In this document: piece after piece, positions 6,029-49,690 of the stretch | Layout of the letters: every line of letters begins with the position of its first letter | How positions within the stretch are numbered: position 1 is the stretch's first letter | Assembly: GCA_037144045.1 (NCBI GenBank) | Contig: JBAWXN010000002.1 | Location: 54,734 to 118,733, forward strand | Reading direction: 5' to 3' | Length of the DNA stretch: 64,000 nt | From: a bacterium | GTDB lineage: Bacteria > Patescibacteriota > Minisyncoccia > Phycocordibacterales > UBA1006 | The notes under the pieces: generated by a model | What the model saw: the letters and a program-made list of their open reading frames with translations, nothing else | Databases searched by the model: none | What the model was told of the DNA's origin: nothing | Made by a program: the position numbers and the translations under genes

Positions 6029-6107
6029 GACTATGTTTTGCAACCAAGTTACCAAATAGAACTGAAAAAGTAAATAGTTGTTCAAAAATAAAACACTCTT
6101 GGGTGTT

Positions 6108-6602: not shown

Positions 6603-7557
6603 GTTTACTGTTAATAATTACTTGAGCAAGCATAGGCGCAAGTGACACTACTTCAAGTTTTTCAAATTTCTTTTCAGGTGCAATGTAAAGACTGTCAGTT
6701 ACAAACACTTTGGTAAATTTAGAATTCTGAAGAATTTCTGGAGCTTCACCATTAAGCAATGCATGTGATGCTGCCATAATTACTTCCTTTGCGCCATGTT
6801 TTTCAATGAGCGCATTCCCCGCTTTTACAGCAGTACTTCCCGTATCAATCATATCATCATACATAAATACCCGTTTACCCGTTACGTCACCGAAAAATTC
6901 CATGTGTTCAATTTCATTAGGTCCAGATCGATATTTAGAAAATGCTGCATTTCCTGTTCCTACTTTTTTTGCAAATGTACGGCCCTCCTTCACAGCGCCT
7001 TCATCCGGACTACAGATCACCCATTCTTCTGGGTTAAGTGTTTCACCTTGTGATTCTAAATATTTTTTCAAGTAATCCCAGAATAATTTTTTCGTTCCAA
7101 TTTTATCTACGGGCACACTCATAAATCCTTCAATGGCGTTGTTATGCAAATGAACACTGGTTAAGTGACTCATTCCTGCAAGTTCGTACATTTTCCCAAG
7201 CAATGATGCATTAATTGACTCGCGACTGTCCGTGGTTTTGTCTTGGCGTTCATAATAATAATACGGAAGCACTACACTAATGCGTGCTGCACCTGATCTG
7301 CGTAATGCGTCGATATAAAACACGAGTCGTAGTACCTCAGTATCAATTGGGTCTTCCATGGTTGAAATCAGCGCAATGTCTTTACCTCGAACCGAAGTTT
7401 CGATAACGGCTTTTTGTTCTCCGTTTTTAAATGTAACTACCGAGCTTTTAATTTCTTCTACTGATTCGTGTTTTTTACGCAACTCATCGATAATTTTTTT
7501 TGGGAGGTCGTGATCGTTTTGAACACCACACACGTAGATAGTTTCTGGTTTGGTCAT
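6571..7557 (-). CDS. prs: ribose-phosphate pyrophosphokinase (PRPP synthetase)
   Basis: PRPP-binding loop VFMYDDMIDTGSTAV, LPYYYYERQDK and N-terminal Prs fold motifs. 328 aa. Confidence 0.9.
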   Translation of the reverse strand: MTKPETIYVCGVQNDHDLPKKIIDELRKKHESVEEIKSSVVTFKNGEQKAVIETSVRGKDIALISTMEDPIDTEVLRLVFYIDALRRSGAARISVVLPYYYYERQDKTTDSRESINASLLGKMYELAGMSHLTSVHLHNNAIEGFMSVPVDKIGTKKLFWDYLKKYLESQGETLNPEEWVICSPDEGAVKEGRTFAKKVGTGNAAFSKYRSGPNEIEHMEFFGDVTGKRVFMYDDMIDTGSTAVKAGNALIEKHGAKEVIMAASHALLNGEAPEILQNSKFTKVFVTDSLYIAPEKKFEKLEVVSLAPMLAQVIINSKLGESIRQENW

Positions 7558-7570
7558 AAATAATTAATAA

Positions 7571-8275
7571 TTACTTGGTTAATAAATAGCGGTCATATAA
7601 ATGAAGCATGGCAAGGGTTGTAGCGCAGTAGCAATACTTGGTAATGTCTTCGAAAGGTACTACACGAACAACAATATGTTCATATTCTTCTTCAAGTCCC
7701 ATCTTAAGTCCATGGTACGTATCCAGAACTTCTTGGGTCACTTCTTTTTCAACCAGGAACGGATAGATAGCTTCGTTGAGGATTCCAGGTGATAAATAAA
7801 ACGGTTTATCAAGGAGTGGAATAACATCATTCGGAGTAAGTCCTAATCGAGTTACCGCATGCGCTTCTTCTTCGAGTTCACGAAGGATCACTGATTCAGG
7901 CGACGTCTGATCGTCAATAAGACCCGCAACTGATTCCGAAATAGTATTTCCTACGGGAACGCGTGGCTGATCTAAGAGGAGCGCATATTTTTTACCTGCA
8001 CAAGTGAGCACGGTAAGTGCAGACACTGCATAATCACGAATCACCACAATCATTCCCGGGAGTTTACCCGCTGGATGAATAATATCTGCCTTAAGTTTTA
8101 TAAAGAGGATGCGTCCGCTTGGAACTCGATCAACCGATTGAATTTCGATTGCCTCGATAATCCATTCTGGATCAAAGGCGTCGAGCCAATTGGTGAACAG
8201 TAATTCTTGAGATATCGTTGCCGCTTCGATCCCTGTAATAGGAATCACCCGATTGTTTTTGGTGATGGTGTGCAT
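7571..8275 (-). CDS. ADP-ribose pyrophosphatase-like Nudix hydrolase (NudF-like)
   Basis: VAGLIDDQTSPESVILRELEEEAH closely resembles the NudF box PAGLIDEGESVEDVARREAIEEAGL. It sits between prs and nadE in the NAD cluster. Confidence 0.55.
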   Translation of the reverse strand: MHTITKNNRVIPITGIEAATISQELLFTNWLDAFDPEWIIEAIEIQSVDRVPSGRILFIKLKADIIHPAGKLPGMIVVIRDYAVSALTVLTCAGKKYALLLDQPRVPVGNTISESVAGLIDDQTSPESVILRELEEEAHAVTRLGLTPNDVIPLLDKPFYLSPGILNEAIYPFLVEKEVTQEVLDTYHGLKMGLEEEYEHIVVRVVPFEDITKYCYCATTLAMLHLYDRYLLTK

Positions 8276-8375
8276 ATGTGATAAAGTTAAAATACCTGAT
8301 AATCATAGCATGCTTGACTCGCGTCGTGCTATTTGCTATGGTAATTAGTGTACTAATAACACTATATCATATCCT

Positions 8376-10319
8376 ATGAAAAATTACAAGTCTCCTTCAA
8401 CCTTTGTTCGTGCTGCAACCATTACCCCTACCCTTACTGTAGGGAACGTTGCCGAAAACACCAAGATCTGCCTTGGCGCTATTAAACAAGCCTACGACGC
8501 CGGTGCACGCATCATCGCTCTGCCTGAACTCGCCCTAACCGGATATACGGCAGCAGACCTGTTTCATACTGACACTCTTAACGCAGCTGTAGAACAAGCG
8601 CTCGTTGATATTGCAGCAGCAACCAAAAAATACGAGGCCACCATCATTATTGGGGCCCCTATCCGAACAGTTCGAGGGATTATCAATGCGGCGGTAGTCT
8701 ACACAGACGGCGAAATTGTAGGGGTAGTGCCTAAAATGCACCTCCCTAACTACAAAGAATTTTATGAGAAACGATGGTTTATTTCTGGATTTGAAACTCC
8801 TGAACCAACTATTTCAATTAATAATGTTGAAGTTCCTTACGGGTCAAACATTTTGTTCACGGATAAAAATAACAAAAAGGTGACTATTGGAATTGAAATT
8901 TGTGAAGACGTATGGATGCCTATACCACCTACTACTGTACACGCACTGAATGGAGCAACTATCTTGATTAACCTTTCGGCGTCAAATGAAATTGTAGGTA
9001 AAGCGGCTTTTCGTAAAGACATGGTAGTAATGCAGTCAGCAAAAACTATCGCCGCGTACATTTACGTGTCATGTGGTGTTCACGAATCTACTACTGATGT
9101 TGTATTTTCTGGACATTCACTCATTGCAGAAAACGGAACACTCATTGCAGAATCACCTCGTTATGCTCGTGAAACCGTAATTACGTACGCCGACATTGAT
9201 ATTGATCACATTGTTACTGATCGCAACCGAACGAATTCATTCGCTGATAATCAAAATGTTGTAGATGTCCCTGCATGGAGCACTATTACGGTTTCTGCAC
9301 CTATTATTAACGGTGTGCCAACCCTTCGTCACGTATCACCTACCCCATTCCTTCCTGCTGACGCAACAAAACGAGCTATCGTTACTGATGATATTTTCAA
9401 TATTCAAGTAGCAGGACTTGCAAAACGACTTCAGAGTATCAATGCTAAAAAAGTAGTCATTGGACTTTCTGGAGGACTTGATTCTACACTTGCCTTCTTG
9501 GTGTGTGTAAAAGTATTTGATTTATTGAAACTTGATCGCAAAGATATTCACGCGATTACCATGCCAGGATTTGGAACAACATCTGGAACTAAAAATAACG
9601 CCTATGATCTAGCAGCTGCAGCTGGTGCAACTCTTGAAGAAATTTCAATTGTTGCAGGAGTGAATCAACACTTCAAAGACATTAAACACGATGACCAAGT
9701 TGAAAACTTTGTGTTTGAAAACAGCCAGGCACGTTATCGAACCATGATCTTGTTTAACAAAGCAAATCAACTAGGTGGTATTGTTGTTGGAACCGGAGAC
9801 CTTTCTGAAATGGCTCTCGGCTGGTGTACCTTCAATGGAGATCATATTTCAAACTACAACGTAAACGGCGGTATTCCAAAAACACTTATTAAATATGTAG
9901 TGCAGCACGTTGCAACAACTGGGGCACCTGATATGCAAAAAGTTCTTACCGACATTTTGGATACCCCTATTTCTCCAGAACTTAAACGAGCTGATAACGA
10001 TAAGATTACTCAGAAAACAGAAGATTTGGTTGGGCCTTACATCCTGCACGACTTCTTCTTGTACCACTTCTTGCGTTGGGGAAGTTCACCGGAAAAAATC
10101 CTTATGCTTGCTGACCTTGCATTCAAGGATTCTGAATTCGACACAGCAACCATTCGTAAATGGTTCAAGGAATTCATGACGCGATTCTTTAAAAATCAAT
10201 GGAAACGTTCAGTTATGGCTGACGGTCCAAAGGTCGGTTCCGTTGCTCTTTCACCTCGTGGTGATTGGCGCATGCCATCTGACGCTGATGTTGCAGAATG
10301 GATAAACAGTGTAGAATAG
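8376..10319 (+). CDS. nadE: glutamine-dependent NAD+ synthetase
   Basis: N-terminal CN-hydrolase domain (PELALTGY, GIEICEDVW with the catalytic Cys) fused to an NAD synthetase domain with the PP-loop GLSGGLDST. 647 aa. Confidence 0.9.
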   Translation: MKNYKSPSTFVRAATITPTLTVGNVAENTKICLGAIKQAYDAGARIIALPELALTGYTAADLFHTDTLNAAVEQALVDIAAATKKYEATIIIGAPIRTVRGIINAAVVYTDGEIVGVVPKMHLPNYKEFYEKRWFISGFETPEPTISINNVEVPYGSNILFTDKNNKKVTIGIEICEDVWMPIPPTTVHALNGATILINLSASNEIVGKAAFRKDMVVMQSAKTIAAYIYVSCGVHESTTDVVFSGHSLIAENGTLIAESPRYARETVITYADIDIDHIVTDRNRTNSFADNQNVVDVPAWSTITVSAPIINGVPTLRHVSPTPFLPADATKRAIVTDDIFNIQVAGLAKRLQSINAKKVVIGLSGGLDSTLAFLVCVKVFDLLKLDRKDIHAITMPGFGTTSGTKNNAYDLAAAAGATLEEISIVAGVNQHFKDIKHDDQVENFVFENSQARYRTMILFNKANQLGGIVVGTGDLSEMALGWCTFNGDHISNYNVNGGIPKTLIKYVVQHVATTGAPDMQKVLTDILDTPISPELKRADNDKITQKTEDLVGPYILHDFFLYHFLRWGSSPEKILMLADLAFKDSEFDTATIRKWFKEFMTRFFKNQWKRSVMADGPKVGSVALSPRGDWRMPSDADVAEWINSVE

Positions 10320-10323
10320 AACT

Positions 10324-10983
10324 ATGCCAGATAAATCATTTCTTAACCCAACGCTTGTGGTAGACATTGTATTATTCACCATTGAGGACGGTGATTTGAA
10401 AGTCCTCTTGATTAATCGTGACGGTGATCCTTTTAAAGGATTTGAAGCACTTCCCGGAGGTTACCTCCTTGCGGGTGAAACAACCAAGACTGCTGCAGAG
10501 CGAGTCCTCAAGGAAAAAGCTGGAGTATCCGATATTTATATCGAACAGCTCTACACGTTTGATGAACTCAATCGTGATCCTCGTGGACCAGTATTTTCAG
10601 TAACCTACCTTGCGCTCGTTCCGCCAGGACTCAATCCTGAAGAACAAGGAACGCAACATCCTAAATGGTTTTCCGTGAAAAAACTTCCTAAGTTAGGATT
10701 TGATCACAAAGCCATTATTGATTACGCTAAGGAACGTCTTCAAGGAAAAATTGAATATACTACTATTGCATTTGGAACCCTCCCTAAACTATTTACCTTA
10801 ACCCAAGTGCAGCAAGTATACGAAGCGATTCTTGAAAAAGAAATTGATAAACGAAATTTCCGTAAGAAGATCGACCAACTTGGCTTCCTTAAAGAAACCA
10901 AGCAAACCCTATCTGGTATGCGCCAGCGCCCTGCGAAGTTGTACACCTTAGGTGCGAAATCTAAAACGATTAAATTGTTTTAA
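10324..10983 (+). CDS. nrtR: NrtR-like Nudix-related transcriptional regulator of NAD metabolism
   Basis: N-terminal Nudix fold with a degenerate box (LPGGYLLAGETTKTAAERVLKEKAGV, Glu replaced by Lys). C-terminal winged helix with NFRKKIDQLGFL...RPAKLYTL, characteristic of NrtR. Embedded among nadE/nadD/pncAB/prs. Confidence 0.6.
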   Translation: MPDKSFLNPTLVVDIVLFTIEDGDLKVLLINRDGDPFKGFEALPGGYLLAGETTKTAAERVLKEKAGVSDIYIEQLYTFDELNRDPRGPVFSVTYLALVPPGLNPEEQGTQHPKWFSVKKLPKLGFDHKAIIDYAKERLQGKIEYTTIAFGTLPKLFTLTQVQQVYEAILEKEIDKRNFRKKIDQLGFLKETKQTLSGMRQRPAKLYTLGAKSKTIKLF

Positions 10984-10984
10984 C

Positions 10985-11020
10985 AAAAAACCCTGTCACT
11001 ATGTGACAGGGTTTCCGTTT
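10985..11020 (+). terminator. Rho-independent terminator
   Basis: ACCCTGTCAC-tat-GTGACAGGGT hairpin followed by a T-rich tract. Confidence 0.5.
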
Positions 11021-11036
11021 TACTAAACGAAAAAAA

Positions 11037-11486
11037 TTAAAGGTTTTGAAGTATCACCAGCGCTTCGTCTTTTGTAATAATTTTATAGTTATTACTGTCT
11101 GAAACCGCAGTATAGTCTTCTTTACCATCTTCAAATCGAACATGGTAGCACAGTCGTAATGTGCCATCATCAAGCTTGAAGAATACTACTGCAATAATTT
11201 CAGCAGGCACATCTCTTCTAAAAGAAAAACTATGTGTGCCAACTAAATATGCTCTTTCGCACTTGGCACGATTTAGATGATCTTCTACTTCTACTTCTGT
11301 TGCAAAAATTGGCTTTAAGCCCGGAAGGAGTTCACCATTATCAGCATAAGCATTGTCACCTAGCCGCTTGGTTTTGTACGGTAAATTATCGAAATGAATC
11401 ATGTCATTTCCGCCAGGGTTGTGATTCATAACAAACACCTCGCCAGGTTTAAGTTCTGGATGATTTTTATTGAATTGCATTCGCAC
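11037..11486 (-). CDS. hypothetical protein (unknown function, inside the NAD cluster)
   Basis: 149-aa ORF between nrtR and nadD. No motif recognised. Confidence 0.35.
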   Translation of the reverse strand: MRMQFNKNHPELKPGEVFVMNHNPGGNDMIHFDNLPYKTKRLGDNAYADNGELLPGLKPIFATEVEVEDHLNRAKCERAYLVGTHSFSFRRDVPAEIIAVVFFKLDDGTLRLCYHVRFEDGKEDYTAVSDSNNYKIITKDEALVILQNL

Positions 11487-11553
11487 ATTTTTAGTTAAAC
11501 AAAGAAATACACTTATTTATAATATCATAAATAAGTGTATTTGTCAATATATC

Positions 11554-12156
11554 TTATCGATACAAGCCTTTTTCCTCGATATAATCATGCACCGCCTGCG
11601 GAATTACTTCTGTGGGTTTTTGATTTCCAGAAATCATGCCCCGTACATCGGTTGCGGATAGTTCTAGAACCCCCGGTAAAAAGGTTGCACGAATACCATG
11701 AGGCACGTCTACAGGAATATTTGAACGATTACGCACAATTAAATCGTGATACGTAACAATTTCATCACCGTATTCCCATGCCAAGATCGATCGCAAGATA
11801 TCATCCCCGGCAATGATTGAAAACGCATAATCAATATGTTTTGCTCGCAATGCACGCAGCGTGTGAAACGTATATGATGGCCGAGGCAGTTCGTCTTCGA
11901 TATCGCACACCTGCATATCCGGATTACTTACCGTTGCACGTCGTACCATTTCAAGGCGGTCTTCGAATGGAGCAAGGCTCCCTAATGGTTTATCAGGATT
12001 ATGTGGCGAAACCACATACCACACCTCGTTCACTAATCCTGCATCAAGGGCCGCTTGCCCAAGTGCAATATGACCGTTGTGAACAGGGTTAAATGAGCCA
12101 AAGAGTAAGCCAACTTTTTTCTTTTCTGCGTATTTCATAGGAATACTATAGCACAA
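11554..12156 (-). CDS. nadD: nicotinate-nucleotide adenylyltransferase
   Basis: FGSFNPVHNGH (HxGH nucleotidyltransferase motif) and the C-terminal LSATDVRGMI (ISSTxIR motif). 200 aa. Confidence 0.85.
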   Translation of the reverse strand: MCYSIPMKYAEKKKVGLLFGSFNPVHNGHIALGQAALDAGLVNEVWYVVSPHNPDKPLGSLAPFEDRLEMVRRATVSNPDMQVCDIEDELPRPSYTFHTLRALRAKHIDYAFSIIAGDDILRSILAWEYGDEIVTYHDLIVRNRSNIPVDVPHGIRATFLPGVLELSATDVRGMISGNQKPTEVIPQAVHDYIEEKGLYR

Positions 12157-12210
12157 GGAGCTACATTGACTTTTTATATAATATGTGATTAATTATAAAA
12201 AAATTTACAA

Positions 12211-13077
12211 ATGAAGAACAAAACAAGCACGTTTTTTGCACTCATCCTGAAATCACCCAAACTTCTGAAACTTTTCAAAATATTAAAATTAATGAAGTTT
12301 GCAAAACCCATGGTGACCATCATTACTATTGCAATTTCAATACTGGCATATTCTATCGTTTATAGTCCATGGATAGCAGTAGGACTCGTGACACTCATTT
12401 TTGTACACGAGATGGGCCACGTCATTGCAATGAACCGACTCGGATTTAAAACAAGTGGACCAGTATTCATACCGTTTCTAGGTGCCGCACTTTTTGCACC
12501 GAGAGACATGACCAGAAAACAAGAAGCCATTCTTGGTATTGGCGGTCCACTACTCGGTAGCCTCTTTGCTTTTCTTGTTGCCGGTATTGCATACCTTACA
12601 CATTCAAAAGAACTCATGATGATCGGTTATCTAGGTATTTTTATAAACCTATTTAATATGGTACCTATTAGTCCCCTTGACAGTGGAAGAGTTACTCAGG
12701 CGGTTGGTAAATTTTTTCCAATTATTGGCTTCTTAATACTTATCGGTGTCACGCTTGCTTTTAAATCTCCGGGGATACTCCTTATTTGGATCTTAGTTCT
12801 TTTTGATTTTACCTTCATGAAGGTTCAGCTACGCTTCTTTTTTGCTCTAATTGTTGAGCTTGCCATGATTTTCATGTTAACTCAAGGAATTGGCATTAGT
12901 GACGATGGTCAATTTTGGTCAGTATTCGCAGACGTAATTATTGGTGGCCTTTACTTATTACTCATTGGAGCAAGTATTGCCTCTGACGCAAAGAAGACGG
13001 AGGAAGTTTTTCTGAAGGCGCAAACCGCGAAGCTCTTACATTTAAAGAAAAACTGTTCTGGTTTTTTACATGGTTAA
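12211..13077 (+). CDS. site-2 protease family (peptidase M50) membrane metalloprotease
   Basis: HEMGH zinc motif in a TM helix. NMVPISPLDSGR matches the second M50 signature (NxxPxxxLDGG). Multiple TM segments. Confidence 0.7.
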   Translation: MKNKTSTFFALILKSPKLLKLFKILKLMKFAKPMVTIITIAISILAYSIVYSPWIAVGLVTLIFVHEMGHVIAMNRLGFKTSGPVFIPFLGAALFAPRDMTRKQEAILGIGGPLLGSLFAFLVAGIAYLTHSKELMMIGYLGIFINLFNMVPISPLDSGRVTQAVGKFFPIIGFLILIGVTLAFKSPGILLIWILVLFDFTFMKVQLRFFFALIVELAMIFMLTQGIGISDDGQFWSVFADVIIGGLYLLLIGASIASDAKKTEEVFLKAQTAKLLHLKKNCSGFLHG

Positions 13078-13259
13078 GTACATCTACAGTTTTACTGGTG
13101 TCATTATTCTATATAAAAAGCTCATTACAAGTTTTTGCACTTACTTAATATATACCTCCCTACAATTTTGCGGGGAGGTTATTTTGTTACTTGACTTTAA
13201 ACGTAATTCATGCTATTGTGTATACGGAAGTTTTTCCAAAACAAAAAATTTAAGAAACA

Positions 13260-13799
13260 ATGAAAGGAGCACTTATCGGATTTGGACTTTTTGCCGTAAT
13301 TGGCTTAGGCCTATTTTTTTACTACATCGGTTTGAAAAACACTGAACAACGCCAACGTAACGCAGTAAATGCACAAACACAGGCAGCGCAGGTTAATTTT
13401 GACGCCATGTGGAAAATCATTAAAGAACAAGCCGGTGTGGCTGATAAGCACAAGGATGCATTTAAGGAAATTTTTATTGGGCAGGCAGAGGCTCGCTATT
13501 CAAAAGACGGGAACCTTATGTTCAAAATGATTACCGAAGACAATCCTGCTTTCACACCCGAACTATATGCAAAATTAATGACTTCTATTGAAGCAAACCG
13601 TAAGGCGTTTGAATTCGAACAGAAAAAATTAATTAGCATGAACCAGGTGCACACCGATTTTGTAACTACATTCCCCGGTAGCATACTTGGCAAAGAAGTA
13701 ATTGAAATTAAATTAGTAACTTCAGCCAGAACAAAAAATGCTTACGAAACCGGTGAAGACAACGAAACATTAATTGACGAGAAGAAACCCACTAAGTAA
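13260..13799 (+). CDS. membrane-anchored hypothetical protein (LemA-like topology, motifs not conserved)
   Basis: Single N-terminal TM followed by a helical soluble domain. It lacks the LemA RRxDLIPNLV motif. Immediately precedes the Cys-rich membrane protein. Confidence 0.35.
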   Translation: MKGALIGFGLFAVIGLGLFFYYIGLKNTEQRQRNAVNAQTQAAQVNFDAMWKIIKEQAGVADKHKDAFKEIFIGQAEARYSKDGNLMFKMITEDNPAFTPELYAKLMTSIEANRKAFEFEQKKLISMNQVHTDFVTTFPGSILGKEVIEIKLVTSARTKNAYETGEDNETLIDEKKPTK

Positions 13800-13802
13800 C
13801 CC

Positions 13803-14939
13803 ATGGTAATATACGGAGCCGTACTTATCTCGATTATTGTTACCGCGCTCCTCTTCCTTTATTTTAGAAAGCAAATCGCGTGGTGGGAATATTTTATTCC
13901 CATCCCGGTTTCTTTACTATTAGTAATTGGAATGAAGGCCATGATTGAACAAACCCAAGTAACCTCTACGGAATACTGGGGCAGCATGGTTGCGCGCGTT
14001 GAATACTACGAAGACTGGGATGAGTGGATCACTCAAACCTGCTACAAAGAGTGCTGCTGTGATAAAGATGGTAAAAACTGTGGTCAAGAGCCATACGACT
14101 GCTCCCACAGAGACTACCATTCAGCCTACTGGCAAATCATTACTACAACAGGAGAAACGATTTCGATAACCGAATCGGAGTACGCCCGTATCAAAGGCAT
14201 ACTTGGCAATGAAACATTCAAAGATCTTGGTCGTGATTATTACACCAAGGACGGAGATGAATACTATTGCACCTGGGATGGGAGTGAAGCAAAAGCAATA
14301 CCTGTTACAACGGTTCACAGTTACGAAAACCGCGTAAAAGCAACCGACCTCAACGTGTTTCACTTTGACAAGGTTGATGATAGTACTAAAGTTCACTACG
14401 AACTGAAAGACTATCCCGGCATGGTAAACAATAACTACACTCAAAATTCATTACTCGGAGATAATTCCCCCGATGCAGTCCAAGCTAATAAAAAGCTTAA
14501 CTACATCAACGGGAAACTCGGACCTAAAAAACAGGTTCGCGTATTCCTCCTTGTTTTCAAAGACCAACCACTTGATGCAGGAATGTACCAAGAATGGTAC
14601 TGGGCCGGAGGAAACAAAAATGAGTTTGTGGTATGCGTTGGCATTGACCGTAACCGTAATGTTACCTGGTGCAAACCTATTAGTTGGACGTACAACGAAA
14701 CACTTAAGGTTGAGACCCGTGATTTTGTTACCCAGCAGAAGCAAGTGAACTTAACCGCTATCGCCAACTACTTGGAATCAGCCATAGATACCAAATTCCA
14801 AAGAAGACATTTCAAGGAGTTTAACTATCTAACGGTTGAACCACCAACGTGGGCCATTGTTCTTACCTACATCATTACTCTATTAGTCAATTTTGGAATC
14901 GGCTACTGGGTAATCAATAACGAATTTGACGAAGAGTAA
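13803..14939 (+). CDS. Cys-rich membrane protein with N- and C-terminal TM helices
   Basis: 378 aa. TM at both ends, a central domain with CYKECCCDKDGKNCG...YDCSH...YYCTWDG, and several N-glycosylation-like NxT/S sites. No known family recognised. Confidence 0.35.
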   Translation: MVIYGAVLISIIVTALLFLYFRKQIAWWEYFIPIPVSLLLVIGMKAMIEQTQVTSTEYWGSMVARVEYYEDWDEWITQTCYKECCCDKDGKNCGQEPYDCSHRDYHSAYWQIITTTGETISITESEYARIKGILGNETFKDLGRDYYTKDGDEYYCTWDGSEAKAIPVTTVHSYENRVKATDLNVFHFDKVDDSTKVHYELKDYPGMVNNNYTQNSLLGDNSPDAVQANKKLNYINGKLGPKKQVRVFLLVFKDQPLDAGMYQEWYWAGGNKNEFVVCVGIDRNRNVTWCKPISWTYNETLKVETRDFVTQQKQVNLTAIANYLESAIDTKFQRRHFKEFNYLTVEPPTWAIVLTYIITLLVNFGIGYWVINNEFDEE

Positions 14940-15009
14940 TCTTCATATCCCTTCTCTTAATTGAGGAGGGATTTTTTTAGGTAAATAAATCCAGTCCATT
15001 TTCTAACTA

Positions 15010-15038
15010 TTGACTTTTATCTATTAATATGTTATATT
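15010..15038 (+). promoter_or_regulatory. sigma70-like promoter upstream of pncA
   Basis: TTGACT-N17-TATATT about 90 nt upstream of the pncA start, in an AT-rich spacer. Confidence 0.35.
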
Positions 15039-15124
15039 AGTATAGATAGAGTATACAAAATATCATGTCTGTGATATATTGTACTTAATACACTAATTAG
15101 TTCATCTTAATAAATTTCATCAAT

Positions 15125-15748
15125 ATGATTGCATTCCTAATTACCATTCTCTTTCTGGTTGCCATAGTATATGTCCTTACCAGAATTATAGCTCTACTAA
15201 ACATCGACATGCAAAATGGTTTCACTCCAGGCGGAGAGCTTGGCGTGAAAGAAGGTGACGTAATTATACCAATAATTAACCGACTCACCTTCTGGTTCAT
15301 CCATATCTTTCGCGCTCTTGTCGTATTTTCTAGAGACTGGCATCCGCGTGTTTCTAAACACTTCAAGGAATTTGGCGGCAATTGGTCAACCCACTGTGTA
15401 ATTAATACACATAGTGCGGAATTCCATAAGGATTTGTTTGTTCCGAAAAATGCCAACATTCTTTCAAAAGGTTTGTACGAAGACGACCAAGCCTACTCGG
15501 CATTCGATAAGAATGCTCGCATCAACGGCATGGACCTAGCCACCTACTTGCGCAAGAAAGGAATAAAGATCCTCTTTGTCACCGGTCTCGCAACAGACTG
15601 GTGTGTGAAGGAAACTGTCCTAGATGCGCGAAAAAATGGATTCTGGGTATTTGTAATCACGAGCGCTATGCGTCCCGTGAATTTGAAACCTGGAGACGAA
15701 GAACGTGCCATCAAGGAAATGAAGGCCGCCGGTGCCATCATTATCTAA
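15125..15748 (+). CDS. pncA: nicotinamidase/pyrazinamidase (isochorismatase family)
   Basis: ALLNIDMQNGF (Asp), FSRDWHP, WSTHCV (catalytic Cys) and GLATDWCV. The N-terminus has an extra 20-aa hydrophobic extension, so the start is uncertain. Confidence 0.8.
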   Translation: MIAFLITILFLVAIVYVLTRIIALLNIDMQNGFTPGGELGVKEGDVIIPIINRLTFWFIHIFRALVVFSRDWHPRVSKHFKEFGGNWSTHCVINTHSAEFHKDLFVPKNANILSKGLYEDDQAYSAFDKNARINGMDLATYLRKKGIKILFVTGLATDWCVKETVLDARKNGFWVFVITSAMRPVNLKPGDEERAIKEMKAAGAIII

Positions 15749-15754
15749 TTTCCA

Positions 15755-15787
15755 AAAACAGCGCCCGGCTAACCCGGGCGTTTTTAT
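15755..15787 (+). terminator. Rho-independent terminator after pncA
   Basis: CGCCCGG-ctaac-CCGGGCG followed by TTTTTATT. Confidence 0.55.
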
Positions 15788-15816
15788 TACTCTAAGTTCG
15801 TGATATATTTAATTTT

Positions 15817-17136
15817 ATGACAACCAATAGAACTACAGAAAACCCAAAAACATTCTCAAGTCTTAATCTCGGACAGCTCGACGATTCGATGTTGAACGGC
15901 CAGATTGTTACTTCACTTCTTGAAGATGACTTTTATAAATTTTCCATGGGACAGGTGCTTTTCGACCATCCAGAATATGGCAATGAAATAATGGTTTGGC
16001 GATTCAAATGCCGAACTAAAATCGCACTTGGTGAATATATTACCGAGGCAGATTTCATGAACGAATACCACCATGTCACGAAACTGCGAGCAACAAAGAC
16101 TGAACTACATTACCTCCGAGGAACCAATGAATACGATGTCCGCATGTTTACTGAAGAGTACCTCGAACACCTTGCAAATCTCCAGGTACCTCCCGCAACA
16201 TTTCATGTAACCCCTGATAATCATATCGAAATTGAAGTCGCAGGACCATGGAGTCATGTGATGCATGCAGAAATGCCCATTTTGAAAATAATCAACACCC
16301 TCTTCTATCGCAGTCAGTTAAAAAATATGTCTCGGATACAACGAGAAGCGATCTATGCAGAAGGAATTAAACGACTCCATGGAACGATACAGCAAATCAA
16401 GGAGCATCCGCATGTTAAATTTTCTGATTTTGGAAACCGTCGCGCATTCGGACCCGTGTGGCATGATTATGTAGTGGCTCGATGTGCGGAAGAATTAGGT
16501 GACCAATTTATTGGGACTTCGAACGTTGCCCTTGCATCTAAATATGATCTGTCACCTATCGGAACCTGTGCTCACGAACTTTCTATGGGAATCACTGCAC
16601 TTATGTTCGACGGCACCGGACAGTCCGTAAAGGATTCACTCAACCGACTCCATGAAATTTGGTGGAATAAGTATGGTCAAGGACTCTCAATTAGTCTTCC
16701 CGATACCTACGGCACGACATTCACCCTTGATCTTATGACGGAACAAATGCTCCGCGACTGGAAAGGATTCCGTATCGATTCCAAAGACCCCATGGTGGCT
16801 ATTCCCGAATTGATCGAAAAATATACCGCTCTAGGTATCGATCCAAAAACAAAAATGGCAATTCCTAGTGACGGGCTCACTGTTGAATCAATGATCGCCA
16901 TCGCTGATACATTCCAAGGACAGATGAAAGTATCGTTTGGTATTGGAACGAATCTTACGAACAATATGGGTCTCAAACAACTCTCTATTGTGGTAAAACC
17001 ATATTCACTCGGAGGAAAATACTGCGTGAAACTTTCCGACAACCTCGAAAAGGCTATGGGAGAACCAGAGACCGTTGCTGCTTACAAGAAAGCACTCGGA
17101 TATCACGAAACCTATGACAAAGAAACTATTGTTTAA
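15817..17136 (+). CDS. pncB: nicotinate phosphoribosyltransferase
   Basis: LLEDDFYKFSM (PncB N-terminus), DFGNRRA and GTSNV motifs. 439 aa. Confidence 0.85.
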   Translation: MTTNRTTENPKTFSSLNLGQLDDSMLNGQIVTSLLEDDFYKFSMGQVLFDHPEYGNEIMVWRFKCRTKIALGEYITEADFMNEYHHVTKLRATKTELHYLRGTNEYDVRMFTEEYLEHLANLQVPPATFHVTPDNHIEIEVAGPWSHVMHAEMPILKIINTLFYRSQLKNMSRIQREAIYAEGIKRLHGTIQQIKEHPHVKFSDFGNRRAFGPVWHDYVVARCAEELGDQFIGTSNVALASKYDLSPIGTCAHELSMGITALMFDGTGQSVKDSLNRLHEIWWNKYGQGLSISLPDTYGTTFTLDLMTEQMLRDWKGFRIDSKDPMVAIPELIEKYTALGIDPKTKMAIPSDGLTVESMIAIADTFQGQMKVSFGIGTNLTNNMGLKQLSIVVKPYSLGGKYCVKLSDNLEKAMGEPETVAAYKKALGYHETYDKETIV

Positions 17137-38193: not shown

Positions 38194-38589
38194 TTATATA
38201 TTTGCGCAAGTATCGGTAATATTCCAGATGGTGCTCAATTTTGCAATCCTTGTTTCACGATTAATATGTACCGCTACCGCATCCAGCATATATTTTGTTT
38301 CATGTGAAACCTTTCGTTCAGCTAAATACCATAAAACAGTCTTTTTAATCTTGGCTATTTTGTAGCCAGTTATATTTTCAAAAGGATTATAGCAGGATCC
38401 GTATTTTATAAGTGTTTTAACTTCTATAAAATGGAGTACTGGACCTAAGCGGGCTACTATATCTATTTCACCAATCTTCTTAGTATAATTTCTTTCAACA
38501 ATGATAAAGCCTCGTGAAACGAGATAGTCTACGGTGATTGACTCACCAAGTTCCCCTATTTTCTGTTTCTCAGAACTAAACTGTTTCAT
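38194..38589 (-). CDS. YraN/UPF0102-family endonuclease-like protein
   Basis: GEIDIVARLGPVLHFIEVKT matches the UPF0102 core GEIDLIA...FVEVKTR (PD-(D/E)xK-like). 131 aa. Confidence 0.65.
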   Translation of the reverse strand: MKQFSSEKQKIGELGESITVDYLVSRGFIIVERNYTKKIGEIDIVARLGPVLHFIEVKTLIKYGSCYNPFENITGYKIAKIKKTVLWYLAERKVSHETKYMLDAVAVHINRETRIAKLSTIWNITDTCANI

Positions 38590-38676
38590 ATATCTATAGT
38601 AACAAACGACAATAAATAACTAATCAGTAATTAATAAAAGACACATTATCGTCATTATCGACAAATATATGACGTT

Positions 38677-38742
38677 TTATCCACTATTTACCCTTAGTTA
38701 TTAACACTTACCCCCAAGTTATCCACAGTTTTAGTGGATAAC
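38677..38742. promoter_or_regulatory. cluster of three DnaA-box-like 9-mers in an AT-rich spacer
   Basis: TTATCCACT (38677-38685), a perfect TTATCCACA (38719-38727) and an inverted TTATCCAC(T) (38734-38742, GTGGATAAC on the plus strand). They sit within 66 bp in the AT-rich YraN-to-tRNA-Arg intergenic region. Confidence 0.3.
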
Positions 38743-38766
38743 TGTCGTTAATGTCGATTAGGTTTC

Positions 38767-38812
38767 ATCTATAGAAAAAGACACTCATGGTTGAGTGTCT
38801 TTTTCTATAGAT
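38767..38812. repeat. 46-bp perfect palindrome (21-bp arms, 4-bp spacer); likely bidirectional terminator or recombination site
   Basis: ATCTATAGAAAAAGACACTCA-tggt-TGAGTGTCTTTTTCTATAGAT immediately 3' of tRNA-Arg. Confidence 0.5.
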
Positions 38813-38819
38813 TATTATG

Positions 38820-38891
38820 TGCACCCGCTAGGACTCGAACCTAGAACGACAGTTCCGAAGACTGTAGTGATATCCGTTTCACTACGGGTGC
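38820..38891 (-). tRNA. tRNA-Arg (anticodon TCG), CCA not encoded
   Basis: Acceptor GCACCCG/CGGGTGC, anticodon stem-loop ACAGT-CTTCGGA-ACTGT, T-arm AGGTTCGAGTCCT. Confidence 0.8.
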
Positions 38892-39021
38892 ATATTACGT
38901 TCTCAGGCACTATAAGCGCTTTCGATTGTTGAAACACTATACATGATATCTTACGATAAATCAAATAATACTGAACGTCTTCTTGAGAAAATAAGGCAAA
39001 TAAGGTATAGTATCCCTGCTT

Positions 39022-39095
39022 GCGGCCATGGTTTAGTGGTAGAACACGTCCTTGCCAAGGATGAGATGGGAGTCCGATTCTCCCTGGCCGCACCA
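39022..39095 (+). tRNA. tRNA-Gly (anticodon GCC), CCA encoded
   Basis: Acceptor GCGGCCA/TGGCCGC, D-loop AGTGGTAG, anticodon stem-loop CGTCC-TTGCCAA-GGATG, T-arm GGGAGTCCGATTCTCCC, 3' ACCA. Abuts the cca start. Confidence 0.8.
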
Positions 39096-39097
39096 AC

Positions 39098-40628
39098 GTT
39101 TCACATGAAACACTCTATTAATACTCATTTAATCCCCCAACATGTTTCGCATGTAACAGAATCCCTTAAAGCCGCAGGTTTTGAGGCTTTTGTGGTGGGT
39201 GGATGTGTCCGGGATATTATTATGGGGCGTACACCTAAAGACTGGGACATTACCACAGACGCAGTACCTGAACAGATCATTAGCCTTTTTGAGTCTCAGG
39301 GTAAAAAAGTAGTTTACGAGAATGCTTTTGGGACAGTTGCTCTCATAGAAGAAAACGAACCATTTGATTCAGTTACTCGCCAGATTGAGATTACCCCATT
39401 CCGCAGTGAAACAACCTATTCCGATAATCGACACCCTGATGCTGTTACTTTTTCTAAAACATTGAATGAGGATTTAAAACGACGTGACTTCACTATTAAC
39501 GCACTTGCCTATGACATTGAAAACGACATACTGATCGATAATTATCAAGGTTTAAACGACATTGAAAACGACATACTAAAAACCGTTGGAAATGCTGAAG
39601 AACGGCTTTCTGAGGACGCACTACGTATCCTTCGAGGTATCAGATTTGCCGCACAACTAGGATTTACTGTTTCACATGAAACAATCAATGCTATGTTTCA
39701 CGTGAAACATTTATTGAATAACATATCTCAGGAACGAATTCGGGATGAATTCGTTAAAATGATCGATTCGAACCACCCAATTATTGCACTAGGAATCATG
39801 AAGCAATTGGGTATACTGGAAATGATTATACCTGAATTACTTGAAGGTGATGGCTGTGAACAAGGCGGAGTTCATAAATACGATGTTTTTGAACATTTAT
39901 TGCATGCTTGCCAGCACGCAGCAGATAAAGATTATACGTTCCACGTGAAACTTGCAGCTCTGTTTCATGATATTGGGAAACCAAGAACACGGAGACCTGG
40001 ACAGAAGAAAGCTTGGACCTTCTATGGTCATGAAGTCGTAGGAGCTCGAATGTCGTTAAAGATCATGGAACGGCTCAGGTTTCCTAAGTCAGACGCAGAA
40101 CTTGTTGTGAAACTTGTCCGTTATCATATGTTCTTCAGCGACACTGAACAGATCACACTATCTGCGGTTCGTCGTATGATTGCGAATGTTTCACGTGAAA
40201 ACATTTGGACCTTGATGCAAATTCGAGAATGTGACCGCGTCGGTATGGCAAAACCTGAAGCTCCTTATCGCTTACGTAAGTACCACGCAATGATCGAAGA
40301 GTGCCTTCGTGATCCAATATCTGTTTCACAGCTTAAGATTGATGGCAATTACCTTATGAAGGAGTTACACGTGAAACCAGGTCCTCGTATGGGATGGATG
40401 TTACACGCACTTCTTGAAGAGGTGCTAGAAAACCCTGAAAAGAACACAATTGAGTATCTTTCTGCAAGAATCAACACTTTCCAAGGTTTCACAGATTTAG
40501 AACTTAGAAAATTAGGCGAACAAGGTAAGCAAACTAAAGAAGAATTGGATGATGCTGAAATCACCAAGTTACACGTGAAACATGGGGTTGCAGCTCAATC
40601 AAAGAAGAAGTAATGTTTCACGTGAAAC
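39098..40628. repeat. array of eight near-perfect copies of the 14-bp palindrome GTTTCACGTGAAAC (CACGTG/CATGTG core) within and flanking the cca CDS
   Basis: Copies at 39098-39111 (overlapping the ATG), 39669-39682, 39695-39708, 39938-39951, 40188-40201, 40364-40377, 40568-40581 and 40615-40628 (2 nt after the stop). More copies lie just outside at 38297-38310 and 40812-40825, with half-sites at 39405, 40323 and 40911. The copies sit in two different reading frames. Confidence 0.6.
39105..40613 (+). CDS. cca: CCA-adding tRNA nucleotidyltransferase with C-terminal HD domain
   Basis: GGCVRDIIMGRTPKDWDITT (class II NTase GGxVRD...DxD), RRDFTINALA, and an HD domain ALFHDIGK. ORF 38943..40613 runs through the tRNA-Gly gene, so the start was placed at the first ATG after the tRNA (MKHSINTHL). 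Confidence 0.8.
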   Translation: MKHSINTHLIPQHVSHVTESLKAAGFEAFVVGGCVRDIIMGRTPKDWDITTDAVPEQIISLFESQGKKVVYENAFGTVALIEENEPFDSVTRQIEITPFRSETTYSDNRHPDAVTFSKTLNEDLKRRDFTINALAYDIENDILIDNYQGLNDIENDILKTVGNAEERLSEDALRILRGIRFAAQLGFTVSHETINAMFHVKHLLNNISQERIRDEFVKMIDSNHPIIALGIMKQLGILEMIIPELLEGDGCEQGGVHKYDVFEHLLHACQHAADKDYTFHVKLAALFHDIGKPRTRRPGQKKAWTFYGHEVVGARMSLKIMERLRFPKSDAELVVKLVRYHMFFSDTEQITLSAVRRMIANVSRENIWTLMQIRECDRVGMAKPEAPYRLRKYHAMIEECLRDPISVSQLKIDGNYLMKELHVKPGPRMGWMLHALLEEVLENPEKNTIEYLSARINTFQGFTDLELRKLGEQGKQTKEELDDAEITKLHVKHGVAAQSKKK

Positions 40629-40637
40629 AAAAAGGCC

Positions 40638-42266
40638 TCATTGGGTCTTTTTTGTTTCTATAGCTGCTTTTATGAGACCATCAAACAAAGGATGTGGCTT
40701 GTCTGGTCGGGATAGGAATTCAGGATGACTTTGAGTTCCTACAAAATAGGGATGCATTTCTGGATTTAATTCAATCATTTCTACAAGATAATCTTCGGGA
40801 TTATCTCCAATGTTTCCCGTGAAACGTCCTGAAATAAGCATTCCACGATCTTCTAATTGTTTTACATATTGATTTTGGACTTCTAGGCGGTGTCTGTGAC
40901 GTTCTATGGTCTGTGAAACACCGAATAGCGATGCAATTTTGGTTTCTGGCTGTATATCACACCTGTAATCGCCCAGGCGCATAGTCCCGCCTTTTTGCGT
41001 AATTTTGAGTTGTTCCGGAATGAAGTCGATAATGAAATCTGAATCTGGTGAAGTGTTTTCCATTTCTCGGGATACGGCGCGCGGAATGCCGCAGGCATTC
41101 CGCGCGAACTCAACTACAGCAAGCTGCATTCCTAAACAGATACCAAAATAGGGCACCTTGTGCATACGCACATACTCAATCGCTTTTATTTTGCCTTCCA
41201 TTCCACGCGAACCGAATCCACCGGGAACAATAACAGCATCGTACGTCTTCAATTCAGTAATCAGTGCATCGTCGTCAGCATCTAAAATAGTTACTACGCA
41301 ATCAACATTGTTGGCAGCTGCAGCTATTTTAACCGATTCTATAACGCTCAAATAAGCATCTGATAATTTCGTATACTTAGATACCAATGCAACTTTTACT
41401 TTTATTTCCTTAGGTTTTTGAATATCATGGAAAAACCGAGGAAGCTTAATGTGCAGGTCTCTATCCATAAATTCAGCAAGTACTTCCGATATCTTGGTAT
41501 TTTCAAGTAAATGAATGGGTACCGAATAAATACTCGACATATCAGGGCAGGGGATGACTCGATCTTGATTCAAGTTTCCAAATAGAGCAATTTTTTCAAG
41601 GAGTCCTAGTGGTAAATCACCATGATCGGGCTCATAGCGTGCCGCAATAATATCAGGCTGAATTCCTAAACGAAGCAGTTCTCGTAATGAATTTTGCAGC
41701 GGTTTTGACTTATATTCACCAGAAACCTTAAGGAAGGGTACATATCCCAAGTGAATATGAAGGACTTTACCTGGGTGATCGCGCCGAAATTGACGTAACC
41801 CCTCCAAAAACACTTCTGCTTCCATGTCGCCCGTAGAGCCTCCAATTTCGATAACTTTTACATCACTTTCTGTTCCTGAGTATATTTTCTTAATATAATC
41901 AGTTATATGAGGAATAAGTTGTACCGTATGACCCAAAAAGACCCCTTCACGCTCCTGATCAAGGATTGATTGGTAAATACGTCCAGCACTCATCGTTGAT
42001 CGTTTGGTAAGATGGGTTTGGAGGAAGCGTTCGTAGTGGCCTAAATCAAGGTCTGTTTCCGCGCCGTCCCCAAGTACATATACCTCACCATGTTCGTAAG
42101 GCGACATGGTTCCAGGATCAACATTCAAATAGGGGTCCATTTTTAAAGCTTCGACGCTGATGCCGCTTGATTTAAGAATCAAGCCAATGCTTGCACCAAT
42201 GATGCCCTTCCCGAGTCCAGACACCACTCCGCCAGTAACTACAATGTAGCGTGCGCCGGTATTCAC
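40638..42266 (-). CDS. pyrG: CTP synthase
   Basis: YIVVTGGVVSGLGKG N-terminus, amidoligase domain, and a C-terminal glutamine amidotransferase domain (GICLGMQ). Confidence 0.95.
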   Translation of the reverse strand: MNTGARYIVVTGGVVSGLGKGIIGASIGLILKSSGISVEALKMDPYLNVDPGTMSPYEHGEVYVLGDGAETDLDLGHYERFLQTHLTKRSTMSAGRIYQSILDQEREGVFLGHTVQLIPHITDYIKKIYSGTESDVKVIEIGGSTGDMEAEVFLEGLRQFRRDHPGKVLHIHLGYVPFLKVSGEYKSKPLQNSLRELLRLGIQPDIIAARYEPDHGDLPLGLLEKIALFGNLNQDRVIPCPDMSSIYSVPIHLLENTKISEVLAEFMDRDLHIKLPRFFHDIQKPKEIKVKVALVSKYTKLSDAYLSVIESVKIAAAANNVDCVVTILDADDDALITELKTYDAVIVPGGFGSRGMEGKIKAIEYVRMHKVPYFGICLGMQLAVVEFARNACGIPRAVSREMENTSPDSDFIIDFIPEQLKITQKGGTMRLGDYRCDIQPETKIASLFGVSQTIERHRHRLEVQNQYVKQLEDRGMLISGRFTGNIGDNPEDYLVEMIELNPEMHPYFVGTQSHPEFLSRPDKPHPLFDGLIKAAIETKKTQ

Positions 42267-48804: not shown

Positions 48805-49620
48805 ATGTCAGACAATATTCGACAACATAAACCCTCCACGAACCCCGAGGACCTGTTATCTAGACTAGGCCTCAGCGATAAAGAATCACATATCTACCTC
48901 GACTTGTTACAAAACGGTCCACGACCTGTCGCAGTTATTGCCAAACGCGCCGGAGTAACGCGCACCAATGGATATGACCTCGTAAAAAACCTCGAGAAGA
49001 AAGGACTCTGTTTTAGCAGTGGAACCACCTATGGTAAAAAAATTCATGCTCATGATCCTGTCGTATTCAAAGAAATTATTGCAGAAAAAAAGCGATCTCT
49101 TGATCACTTAGCAGCAGAACTTAACGACAGTGTTCATGTCTTTAAAAAAACAAAAACGACACCCTACACCAATCATGAGGTCACCTATCTGGAGGGTACA
49201 GAAAATATTAAGAAAATATTTCCCATGATGGCAGCACCTCATGTTTCACAGGTATATGGTGTTGGCTCTGAATTAGAACTCGAAGAATATGTTGGTCGTG
49301 AAACACTTGAGCAATTCCATGAGCAGCGTAAGCGCAATAACACCCACCTTTCAGTCCTCCGAGCAGGACCCCAACGTCTTTCGGGAAATGCGTTTCACGA
49401 TGATGTCGCCTATTTGCGCGAAGTCCGGATTCGCCCTAAAGGTAAGGTTCGACTGAAATCGCAGCTGTATTTATTTGATAACACCATCATTTTCTTAAAC
49501 CTATTCGACAAACCATTCGCAACCATTATTCACAACGAACCCATGTTTATTATGTTTCACTCATGGTACGAATTCATCTGGAATGCTTCTGAAACAGTGG
49601 TTTCACGGAAAAGTAAATAA
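48805..49620 (+). CDS. TrmB-like transcriptional regulator
   Basis: N-terminal wHTH LGLSDKESHIYLDLLQNGPRPVAVIAKRAGVTRTNGYDLVKNLEKKGL. The C-terminal domain ends in the FHSWYEFIWNAS motif shared with the paralogs. The coding sequence carries seven GTTTCAC/GTGAAAC heptamers. Confidence 0.6.
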   Translation: MSDNIRQHKPSTNPEDLLSRLGLSDKESHIYLDLLQNGPRPVAVIAKRAGVTRTNGYDLVKNLEKKGLCFSSGTTYGKKIHAHDPVVFKEIIAEKKRSLDHLAAELNDSVHVFKKTKTTPYTNHEVTYLEGTENIKKIFPMMAAPHVSQVYGVGSELELEEYVGRETLEQFHEQRKRNNTHLSVLRAGPQRLSGNAFHDDVAYLREVRIRPKGKVRLKSQLYLFDNTIIFLNLFDKPFATIIHNEPMFIMFHSWYEFIWNASETVVSRKSK

Positions 49621-49642
49621 CTTCTAAAGTTTTTATAAGCAA

Positions 49643-49677
49643 AAAATAAACCCATCTTGTTACAGATGGGTTTTTGT
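49643..49677. terminator. bidirectional Rho-independent terminator
   Basis: AACCCATCT-tgttacag-ATGGGTTT with A/T flanks. Confidence 0.5.
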
Positions 49678-49690
49678 GAAACGTTTCACA
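49675..49690. promoter_or_regulatory. perfect CRP/FNR-like palindrome TGTGAAACGTTTCACA (swapped-half version of the cca palindrome)
   Basis: TGTGA-N6-TCACA consensus, located between the convergent 3' ends of the TrmB-like gene and the HAD-NadM-Nudix gene. Confidence 0.3.

Follow-up and report, generated by a model that had tools for sequence, protein, structure and literature searches.

Ten parS-type palindromes in and around the cca gene of a Patescibacteriota bacterium very probably form its chromosomal partition locus

Centromere sites of bacteria can lie within genes or form arrays: several parS sites of Bacillus subtilis are intragenic, one of them inside spo0J, and plasmids carry centromere arrays such as sopC of F, with its 43-bp repeats. 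In most bacterial chromosomes parS is a highly conserved palindrome, TGTTNCACGTGAAACA (PMC7022226). The forms GTTTCACGTGAAAC and TGTTTCACGTGAAACA are given for Mycobacterium smegmatis and Hyphomonas neptunium, respectively, and the heptamers GTTTCAC and GTTCCAC are described as half-parS, both of which are also occupied by ParB in Pseudomonas aeruginosa (PMC7022226). In the same species, intragenic parS sites are present and can be mutated synonymously (PMC4368675). B. subtilis has 10 parS sites in total, 8 of them in the ori domain, and Streptomyces coelicolor has 21 (PMC7022226); Myxococcus xanthus holds 24 upstream of parAB, approximately 30 kb from ori (PMC3778016). Here, we describe a cluster of ten parS-like palindromes in and around cca, the gene for the CCA-adding tRNA nucleotidyltransferase, in a bacterium of the Patescibacteriota (assembly GCA_037144045.1, contig JBAWXN010000002.1, positions 54,734 to 118,733). 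This whole 64-kb stretch is referred to as the window. Together with a 10-kb extension on its right (L081, reached via ComM), in which no parS, parAB or dnaA was found, it covers 74 kb of the source genome. The form of the motif that we name for whole-genome site counts is GTTNCACGTGNAAC.

The palindrome found in the window makes up the core of canonical chromosomal parS, tGTTNCACGTGAAACa, the site of ParB/Spo0J loading. When all 64 kb were searched for GTTTCACGTGAAAC at one mismatch or fewer, ten matches were obtained, all within 38297-40825 (starts at 38297, 39098, 39669, 39695, 39938, 40188, 40364, 40568, 40615, and 40812), and the other ~61 kb yielded none. The chance expectation is zero, with no match in 100 dinucleotide-preserving shuffles. 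An earlier note, made on this DNA from its letters alone, had listed ten near-perfect palindromes at these coordinates, and the exact matches bear it out; what it missed is that the motif reads as the canonical parS centromere site. Relative to the published core GTTNCACGTGAAAC, in which N is allowed, five of the ten sites are perfect and five carry one mismatch, and position 5 is T, C or A. The full 16-mer TGTTTCACGTGAAACA occurs perfectly at 39694-39709 and again at 40614-40629, and a degenerate 16-mer with three mismatches lies at 39143. Consensus identity with parS, clustering, selection at the DNA level and conservation of the locus over ~80 related species are established for the array. 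We consider it very likely that the ten palindromes are chromosomal parS sites and that they jointly form the partition locus of this bacterium.

Half-sites (GTTTCAC or GTGAAAC) accompany the complete ones. The three that the earlier note had recorded were confirmed (39406, 40323, and 40913), and its list proved incomplete, as five more were found (38252, 38514, 38876, 40107, and 40486). Thus, eight extra half-sites fall within 38252-40919, vs. a background of ~0.4 per kb. As a separate observation, seven half-sites occur in ~450 bp at 49243-49689 (same background), a stretch that runs from the 3′ half of a TrmB-like gene (48805-49620) into the sequence right after it; these include an everted GTGAAAC-GTTTCAC pair at 49676-49689, and a 16-mer with three mismatches lies at 49290. 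This group may be what is left of parS sites that have decayed, or a zone in which half-sites are bound.

Relatives were collected by scanning one genome per GTDB species, which gave 80 loci whose CCA proteins are 53-72% identical. They derive from Patescibacteria metagenome-assembled genomes (MAGs) labelled Paceibacteria, Nomurabacteria, Parcubacteria or, loosely, "Saccharibacteria," and were picked by cca homology, so that the view is of the cca region and not of parS elsewhere in those genomes. Sites are present at 61 of the 80 loci. At one mismatch or fewer, cca carries 0.68 sites per kb and the 1.5 kb ahead of it 0.66, vs. 0.018 per kb in the downstream sequence and ~850 kb of farther flanks. 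With N permitted at the symmetric variable positions 4 and 11, the corresponding values are 1.69 (cca) and 1.32 (upstream) vs. 0.03-0.055 per kb, with a median of five sites per locus in cca plus the 1.5 kb upstream (UPF0102 and the tRNA spacer), an enrichment of about 40-50 fold over the flanks, and at least one such site is found in 56 of the 58 loci with enough upstream sequence. The window, with its ten sites, tops the range alongside its nearest relatives (L006, L002, L001, and L005), with which it has sites at homologous codons in common. Across the family, sites occupy ~25 different codon positions (alignment columns), indicating turnover of sites around a fixed locus. The gene order RNase Y, HU, UPF0102 (minus strand), tRNAs, cca (plus strand), ExoIII (minus strand) is kept, and UPF0102 is the densest parS host among the relatives, with 1.5 sites per kb. 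One relative, L055, carries 12 parS-like sites in ~700 bp (5919-6625), mostly intergenic and next to or inside UPF0102. In this genome UPF0102 and cca are ~3.4 kb apart, with other genes in between, and the array stays with UPF0102. Since the array follows UPF0102 and the spacer, the anchor is the UPF0102-cca junction rather than cca as such.

Copies that are few per genome and clustered are a trait of parS, and this is what was observed both in the window (ten in 2.5 kb) and off the locus in relatives. The same figures bear on another reading, in which the palindrome is a genome-wide oligonucleotide signal that happens to be frequent here: a sequence for DNA uptake, a target of restriction-modification or methylation (CACGTG), or a general k-mer bias. 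An uptake signal and a modification motif had been among the candidates of the earlier note. Patescibacteria are often competent, and a CACGTG core is a typical type II palindrome. However, uptake sequences are evenly spread rather than crowded into 2.5 kb, and no full site occurs in the other 61 kb of the window or in L081, nor are sites frequent in the relatives' flanks. CACGTG itself occurs six times inside the cluster and only five times outside it. We find such a signal hardly credible, and the distribution of the sites excludes an uptake or modification motif.

The extent of the conserved unit is equally informative about a mobile origin. Among 162 sites in relatives, T is found at position -1 in 58% and A at position +14 in 62%, a flanking preference that completes the 16-bp palindrome; outside these 16 bp, no conservation was seen across the 162 sites. 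Many near-identical short palindromes, up to the 12 copies in 700 bp of L055, might be expected of remnants of a small mobile or repetitive element of the repetitive extragenic palindromic (REP) or miniature inverted-repeat transposable element (MITE) kind. Yet similarity ends at 16 bp and the flanks are unrelated, and this absence of conserved flanks rules out a longer repeat element. In-frame copies are also found at homologous codons of conserved genes although the CCA proteins concerned are only 64-72% identical, and no transposase is nearby. The chance that the array has this source is, in our estimation, negligible.

The earlier note had proposed that the constraint is on the DNA and not on the protein, and this was upheld by synonymous shuffling, in which codons were permuted inside cca with the protein held fixed. 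In 3000 shuffles of the window cca, a mean of 0.42 sites (maximum, 3) was obtained vs. 6 observed, and for the 80 orthologous cca genes 5.3 ± 2.0 sites were expected vs. 81 observed. Codon usage within the recurring peptides is correspondingly rigid: VTHVT is encoded by GTTACACATGTAAC in 42 of 43 cases, whereas the control pentapeptide HDIGK has 47 encodings in 78 occurrences, and among 190 recurrent pentapeptides the most frequent encoding accounts for a median of 8% of occurrences. Orthologues without palindromes would have spoken for the protein; instead, they carry palindromes, often at homologous codons. Intergenic DNA also holds sites, and those in genes occur whichever way the gene points and in every permitted frame. 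What selection maintains is the DNA site, independent of coding context.

The two reading frames that the earlier note had recognized, VS(R/H)E(T/N) and (F/L)HVK, were likewise recovered. The first frame of the 14-mer reads V-S-R-E-T and the second (F/L)HVK; the third, GT-TTC-ACG-TGA, contains a stop, and the two-frame pattern follows from this TGA. The site at 40812, in pyrG, is the sole window site in the third frame, and its mismatch changes TGA to GGA on the coding strand and abolishes the stop. As to placement, six sites lie fully inside cca rather than the eight first reported, and it holds that one overlaps the ATG and another begins 2 nt after the stop codon. The sites and the features that host or adjoin them are as follows:

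38194-38589, minus strand: UPF0102 (YraN-family) gene, divergent from cca, a conserved neighbour
38297-38310: parS-like GTTTCATGTGAAAC, one mismatch, inside UPF0102; the minus strand reads VSHET
Spacer from UPF0102 to tRNA-Arg: 230 bp
38655-38741 (90 bp): four DnaA-box-like 9-mers, with a perfect TTATCCACA at 38719 and its inverted partner at 38733, 5 bp away
38819-38891, minus strand: tRNA-Arg(TCG), in the spacer
39022-39095, plus strand: tRNA-Gly(GCC), directly upstream of cca
39098-39111: parS-like GTTTCACATGAAAC, one mismatch, 2 nt past tRNA-Gly and overlapping the cca ATG at 39105
39105-40613, plus strand: cca, CCA-adding tRNA nucleotidyltransferase with HD domain (PolyA_pol, PolyA_pol_RNAbd, HD, tRNA_NucTran2_2), host of six sites
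39143-39158: degenerate 16-mer TGTTTCGCATGTAACA, three mismatches, cca codons ~10-17
39669-39682: parS-like GTTTCACATGAAAC, one mismatch, cca frame VSHET
39694-39709: perfect 16-bp parS TGTTTCACGTGAAACA, cca frame MFHVKH
39938-39951: parS GTTCCACGTGAAAC, perfect to GTTNCACGTGAAAC, cca frame FHVKL, in place of PLE(V/I)RL by the HD motif
40188-40201: parS-like GTTTCACGTGAAAA, one mismatch, cca frame VSREN
40364-40377: parS GTTACACGTGAAAC, perfect to GTTNCACGTGAAAC, cca frame LHVKP
40568-40581: parS GTTACACGTGAAAC, perfect to GTTNCACGTGAAAC, cca frame LHVKH
40614-40629: perfect 16-bp parS TGTTTCACGTGAAACA, adjoining the cca stop and followed by a terminator-like hairpin (40629-40652)
40638-42266, minus strand: pyrG (CTP synthase), convergent with cca, with the site at 40812 and the half-site at 40913
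40812-40825: parS-like GTTTCCCGTGAAAC, one mismatch, in the 3′ part of pyrG (minus strand), third frame

The degenerate 16-mer at 39143-39158 is the homologue of the family's most conserved site (YVTHVT, encoded by GTTACACATGTAACA). A role of the palindrome as an RNA hairpin was considered and rejected, as the stem is only ~5 bp and the sites lie in genes of both orientations; Rfam matched the four tRNAs only.

The imprint of the sites on the CCA protein takes more than one form. Some window sites make use of peptides that pre-exist in the family, namely (I/V)SHET, LHxKHG, and ELxxKPG. Others change residues, so that PLE(V/I)RLA by the HD motif has become PFHVKLA and AIxxNxxL has become AMFHVKHL. 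In many relatives (L009, L011, L012, L017, L021, L024, L025, L028, L030, L037, L050, and others), a hypervariable in-frame insertion follows the FGTV motif of the CCA protein (alignment columns 155-232); the window protein is without it. The insertion consists of repeated pentapeptides, VSRET, VTHVT, VTHET, VSYET, and VTRVT, each of which is almost always one parS-like 14-mer. It is protein sequence written by DNA-site selection. In the literature searched, we found no report of a centromere shaping the sequence of an essential enzyme. A broader proposal, which we regard as plausible with the balance somewhat against it, is that the centromere of Paceibacteria has long been housed in UPF0102 and cca, that selection for ParB sites has been written into their proteins, and that the locus may be a compact origin-and-centromere control module unlinked from dnaA and parB.

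As a binder for the palindromes, the earlier note had pointed to local regulators, and its idea of an array for a palindrome-binding protein stands. An operator array through which a TrmB-like, NrtR-like, CRP-like or E-box regulator controls cca and its neighbours would fit the three TrmB-like genes and one NrtR-like gene of the window and the site that overlaps the cca start codon. Nevertheless, the majority of sites lie deep in coding sequence or in the 3′ ends of genes and not at promoters. Of the 80 relatives, only 9 have a TrmB homologue at 10 kb or less from cca, compared with 61 that have sites, and the motif equals the consensus that has already been assigned to ParB across bacterial phyla. 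TrmB, NrtR, and CRP are therefore very unlikely to be the binders.

If the array is parS, its working can be sketched from established ParABS biology. ParB dimers would recognize each 16-bp inverted repeat via their helix-turn-helix, bind CTP, close to a clamp and slide onto the flanking DNA. Ten loading sites in 2.5 kb could then nucleate a single dense ParB complex that marks the origin-proximal region for segregation and recruits SMC, as well as ParA if the organism has one. ParB binding, segregation and SMC loading are the functions that the array would thus serve. The sites would persist only inside or at the edges of genes (UPF0102, cca, and the end of pyrG), in the two stop-free frames; they presumably sit within genes because these genomes hold very little intergenic DNA. 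Selection on the DNA site would fix the choice of codons and in places override the amino-acid sequence.

Support for the partner proteins comes from the lineage. COG1475 (Spo0J/ParB) is a core gene found in 13 of 17 Parcubacteria genomes, and smc is present in 14 of the 17 (PMC4508563, supplementary Table 1). One of the 13 genomes with COG1475 is RAAC4_OD1_1, whose contig AWSN01000001.1 is among our related loci (L038) and has three sites at cca. Its gene numbers are G0374 for parB, G0540 for cca, and G0576 for dnaA (PMC4508563), which places parB 166 gene numbers from cca. In the literature searched, nothing in main text joined parS, ParB, and Patescibacteria (the names candidate phyla radiation (CPR), Parcubacteria, and Saccharibacteria included).

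In relatives, the locus also tends to lie near the replication origin. In Parcubacteria genomes with comparable locus tags, cca is 23-43 genes from dnaA (table of PMC4508563), and in one relative, L004, dnaA (7425-8795, minus strand) immediately precedes UPF0102, with the parS sites and cca following. The spacer from UPF0102 to tRNA-Arg in L004 holds two parS sites on the UPF0102 side of its DnaA box, and the skew minimum of this locus is near the far (3′) end of dnaA. When orientation-corrected GC skew was determined for 34 relatives, six origin-like and no terminus-like switches were found; at seven other loci the skew is negative to either side, and at four it is positive to either side. 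At a random location in a ~1-Mb genome, viewed over 20 kb, far fewer origin switches than six in 34 would be expected. The minimum of cumulative GC skew over a 21-kb locus falls 170-540 bp upstream of cca in ~11 of 36 relatives, the window not being one of them.

Beside the parS array, the spacer with the DnaA-box element is itself conserved, with homologous spacers in L002, L004, L005, L006, L011, L039, and L064. DnaA boxes are 5-fold enriched upstream of cca, and TTATCCAC(A) is the most widely shared 8-mer of the -900 to -150 region, being found at 46 of 67 loci. The spacer may be an origin-related or DnaA-regulated element that is paired with the centromere. The UPF0102-tRNA spacer was also considered as the oriC of this genome, a candidate left unsupported by a skew that is equally negative on both sides after orientation correction; some relatives do switch skew at this spacer. 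A second clustered motif, AAACGACAT/ATGTCGTTT, was noticed as well. Three perfect copies occur in the entire window, all in a 55-bp stretch inside cca (39521-39574), and in relatives the conserved DnaA box is surrounded by 9-10 exact copies that point in either direction (10 in the spacer of L005 at -574 to -275, 9 in L007, and 6 in the spacer of L002; L006 is also a carrier). The arrangement looks iteron-like, and those inside cca may be no more than a consequence of the conserved peptide DIENDI.

Several observations weigh against reading the array as the partition locus of this genome. No ParB or ParA gene was found in the 64-kb window, in the 10 kb to its right, or in the 81 fetched loci. 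The search comprised Pfam on ~70 window ORFs (open reading frames), precomputed Pfam hits, regular expressions for GERRxRA and KGGxGKT (applied to the window and to 80 loci), and tblastn with Spo0J and Soj queries; the sole GERRRRA match, in L070, was dismissed as a junk ORF. ParA (COG1192) is also missing from the Parcubacteria core table, which lists genes in at least 13 of 17 genomes (PMC4508563). Four of the ten sites are mismatched in the central CACGTG. The GC skew of the window is uniformly negative, ~-0.07 on both sides of the locus and with no switch, and no dnaA occurs in the window, which reaches 39 kb to the left and 35 kb to the right. With neither a parB in the window nor one in the extension or the fetched loci, we infer ParB for the source genome itself. 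ParB-only systems do exist, for example in Streptococcus pneumoniae (PMC7022226). Given the lack of a skew switch and of dnaA, the case for origin proximity is made by the relatives. The origin of this genome lies beyond the window, probably on its right, a placement consistent with clpP < cca < dnaA as the order of genes in RAAC4_OD1_1.

The distance between parB and the cluster invites another explanation, in which a ParB-family or other palindrome-binding protein acts outside segregation. It might dampen the transcription of tRNA-Gly, cca, and UPF0102 in the manner of Noc or KorB, or act on the adjacent DnaA-box element. COG1475 also takes in ParB-like proteins that have no part in segregation, and the array straddles the conserved DnaA-box spacer. 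In P. aeruginosa, furthermore, promoters next to parS can be repressed by the ParB bound there (PMC7022226). On the other hand, the sequence is that of a segregation-type parS and differs from the Noc site, ATTTCCCGGGAAAT, at specificity positions; SMC belongs to the core of the lineage; and the locus tends to be origin-proximal in relatives. Silencing would also be compatible with centromere function and need not exclude it. We consider a purely non-segregational role unlikely, with a small share of the probability, and retain the partition locus as the preferred interpretation.

Other features of the region deserve brief mention. The position of pyrG, a CTP synthase gene, beside the loading sites of a CTP-dependent clamp is probably a coincidence; a meaningful link was rejected because pyrG adjoins cca only in the window and L008. 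A perfect hairpin with a 20-bp stem (ATCTATAGAAAAAGACACTC...GAGTGTCTTTTTCTATAGAT) occupies 38767-38812, between the DnaA-box spacer and tRNA-Arg, and is probably a bidirectional terminator. Inside cca, an exact 20-bp direct repeat, gacattgaaaacgacatact, occurs at 39513-39532 and 39558-39577, 45 bp apart; it is an in-frame duplication through which DIENDIL is encoded twice. Elsewhere in the window, and unrelated to the palindromes, genes for NAD and nucleotide salvage form a run, together with their regulator, at 6108-17136. Its first members are nucleoside deoxyribosyltransferase-like, PRPP synthetase, NUDIX, and NAD synthetase genes and the NrtR-like regulator (10324-10983), and further members are cytidylyltransferase-like (possibly NadD), isochorismatase (possibly PncA), and NAPRTase (PncB) genes.

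The locus gives chromosome segregation in Patescibacteria (CPR) a first concrete point of entry. In hundreds of MAGs it could serve to mark the region bound by ParB, which is probably near the origin, and it is a clean natural case of selection for DNA-binding sites overriding coding constraint in very compact genomes. No new mechanism is revealed by the parS array. The parS element itself, intragenic parS and dense parS arrays were all known before; the host is new. Less ordinary are the density of sites inside the gene of an essential enzyme, the lack of linkage to parB, and the imprint on the protein.

These features stand out on comparison with the described systems. The sites share with parS/Spo0J of B. 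subtilis the same 16-bp inverted repeat, with any base tolerated at position 5. Whereas those of B. subtilis are distributed across ~20% of a 4-Mb chromosome, in its origin-proximal part, the ten of the window lie in 2.5 kb, with parB not near. In P. aeruginosa, the likeness extends to half-sites, of which the window has eight extra in the cluster and the group of seven at 49.2-49.7 kb; there, however, four origin-proximal sites (parS1-4) are known and reshaping of host proteins is not reported, in contrast to ten sites in one gene neighbourhood. Plasmid centromere arrays reach a comparable density of ParB-family sites, as the 12 in ~700 bp of L055 illustrate, but are built of regular, tandem, plasmid-specific, non-coding repeats, unlike the irregularly spaced and mostly coding sites described here, which conform to the chromosomal consensus. 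The array of M. xanthus is similar in being a dense, multi-copy set of parS at one locus, tens of kb from the origin (PMC3778016). It is directly upstream of parAB, whereas the array in the window lies within and between UPF0102, tRNA genes, cca, and pyrG, unlinked to parB.

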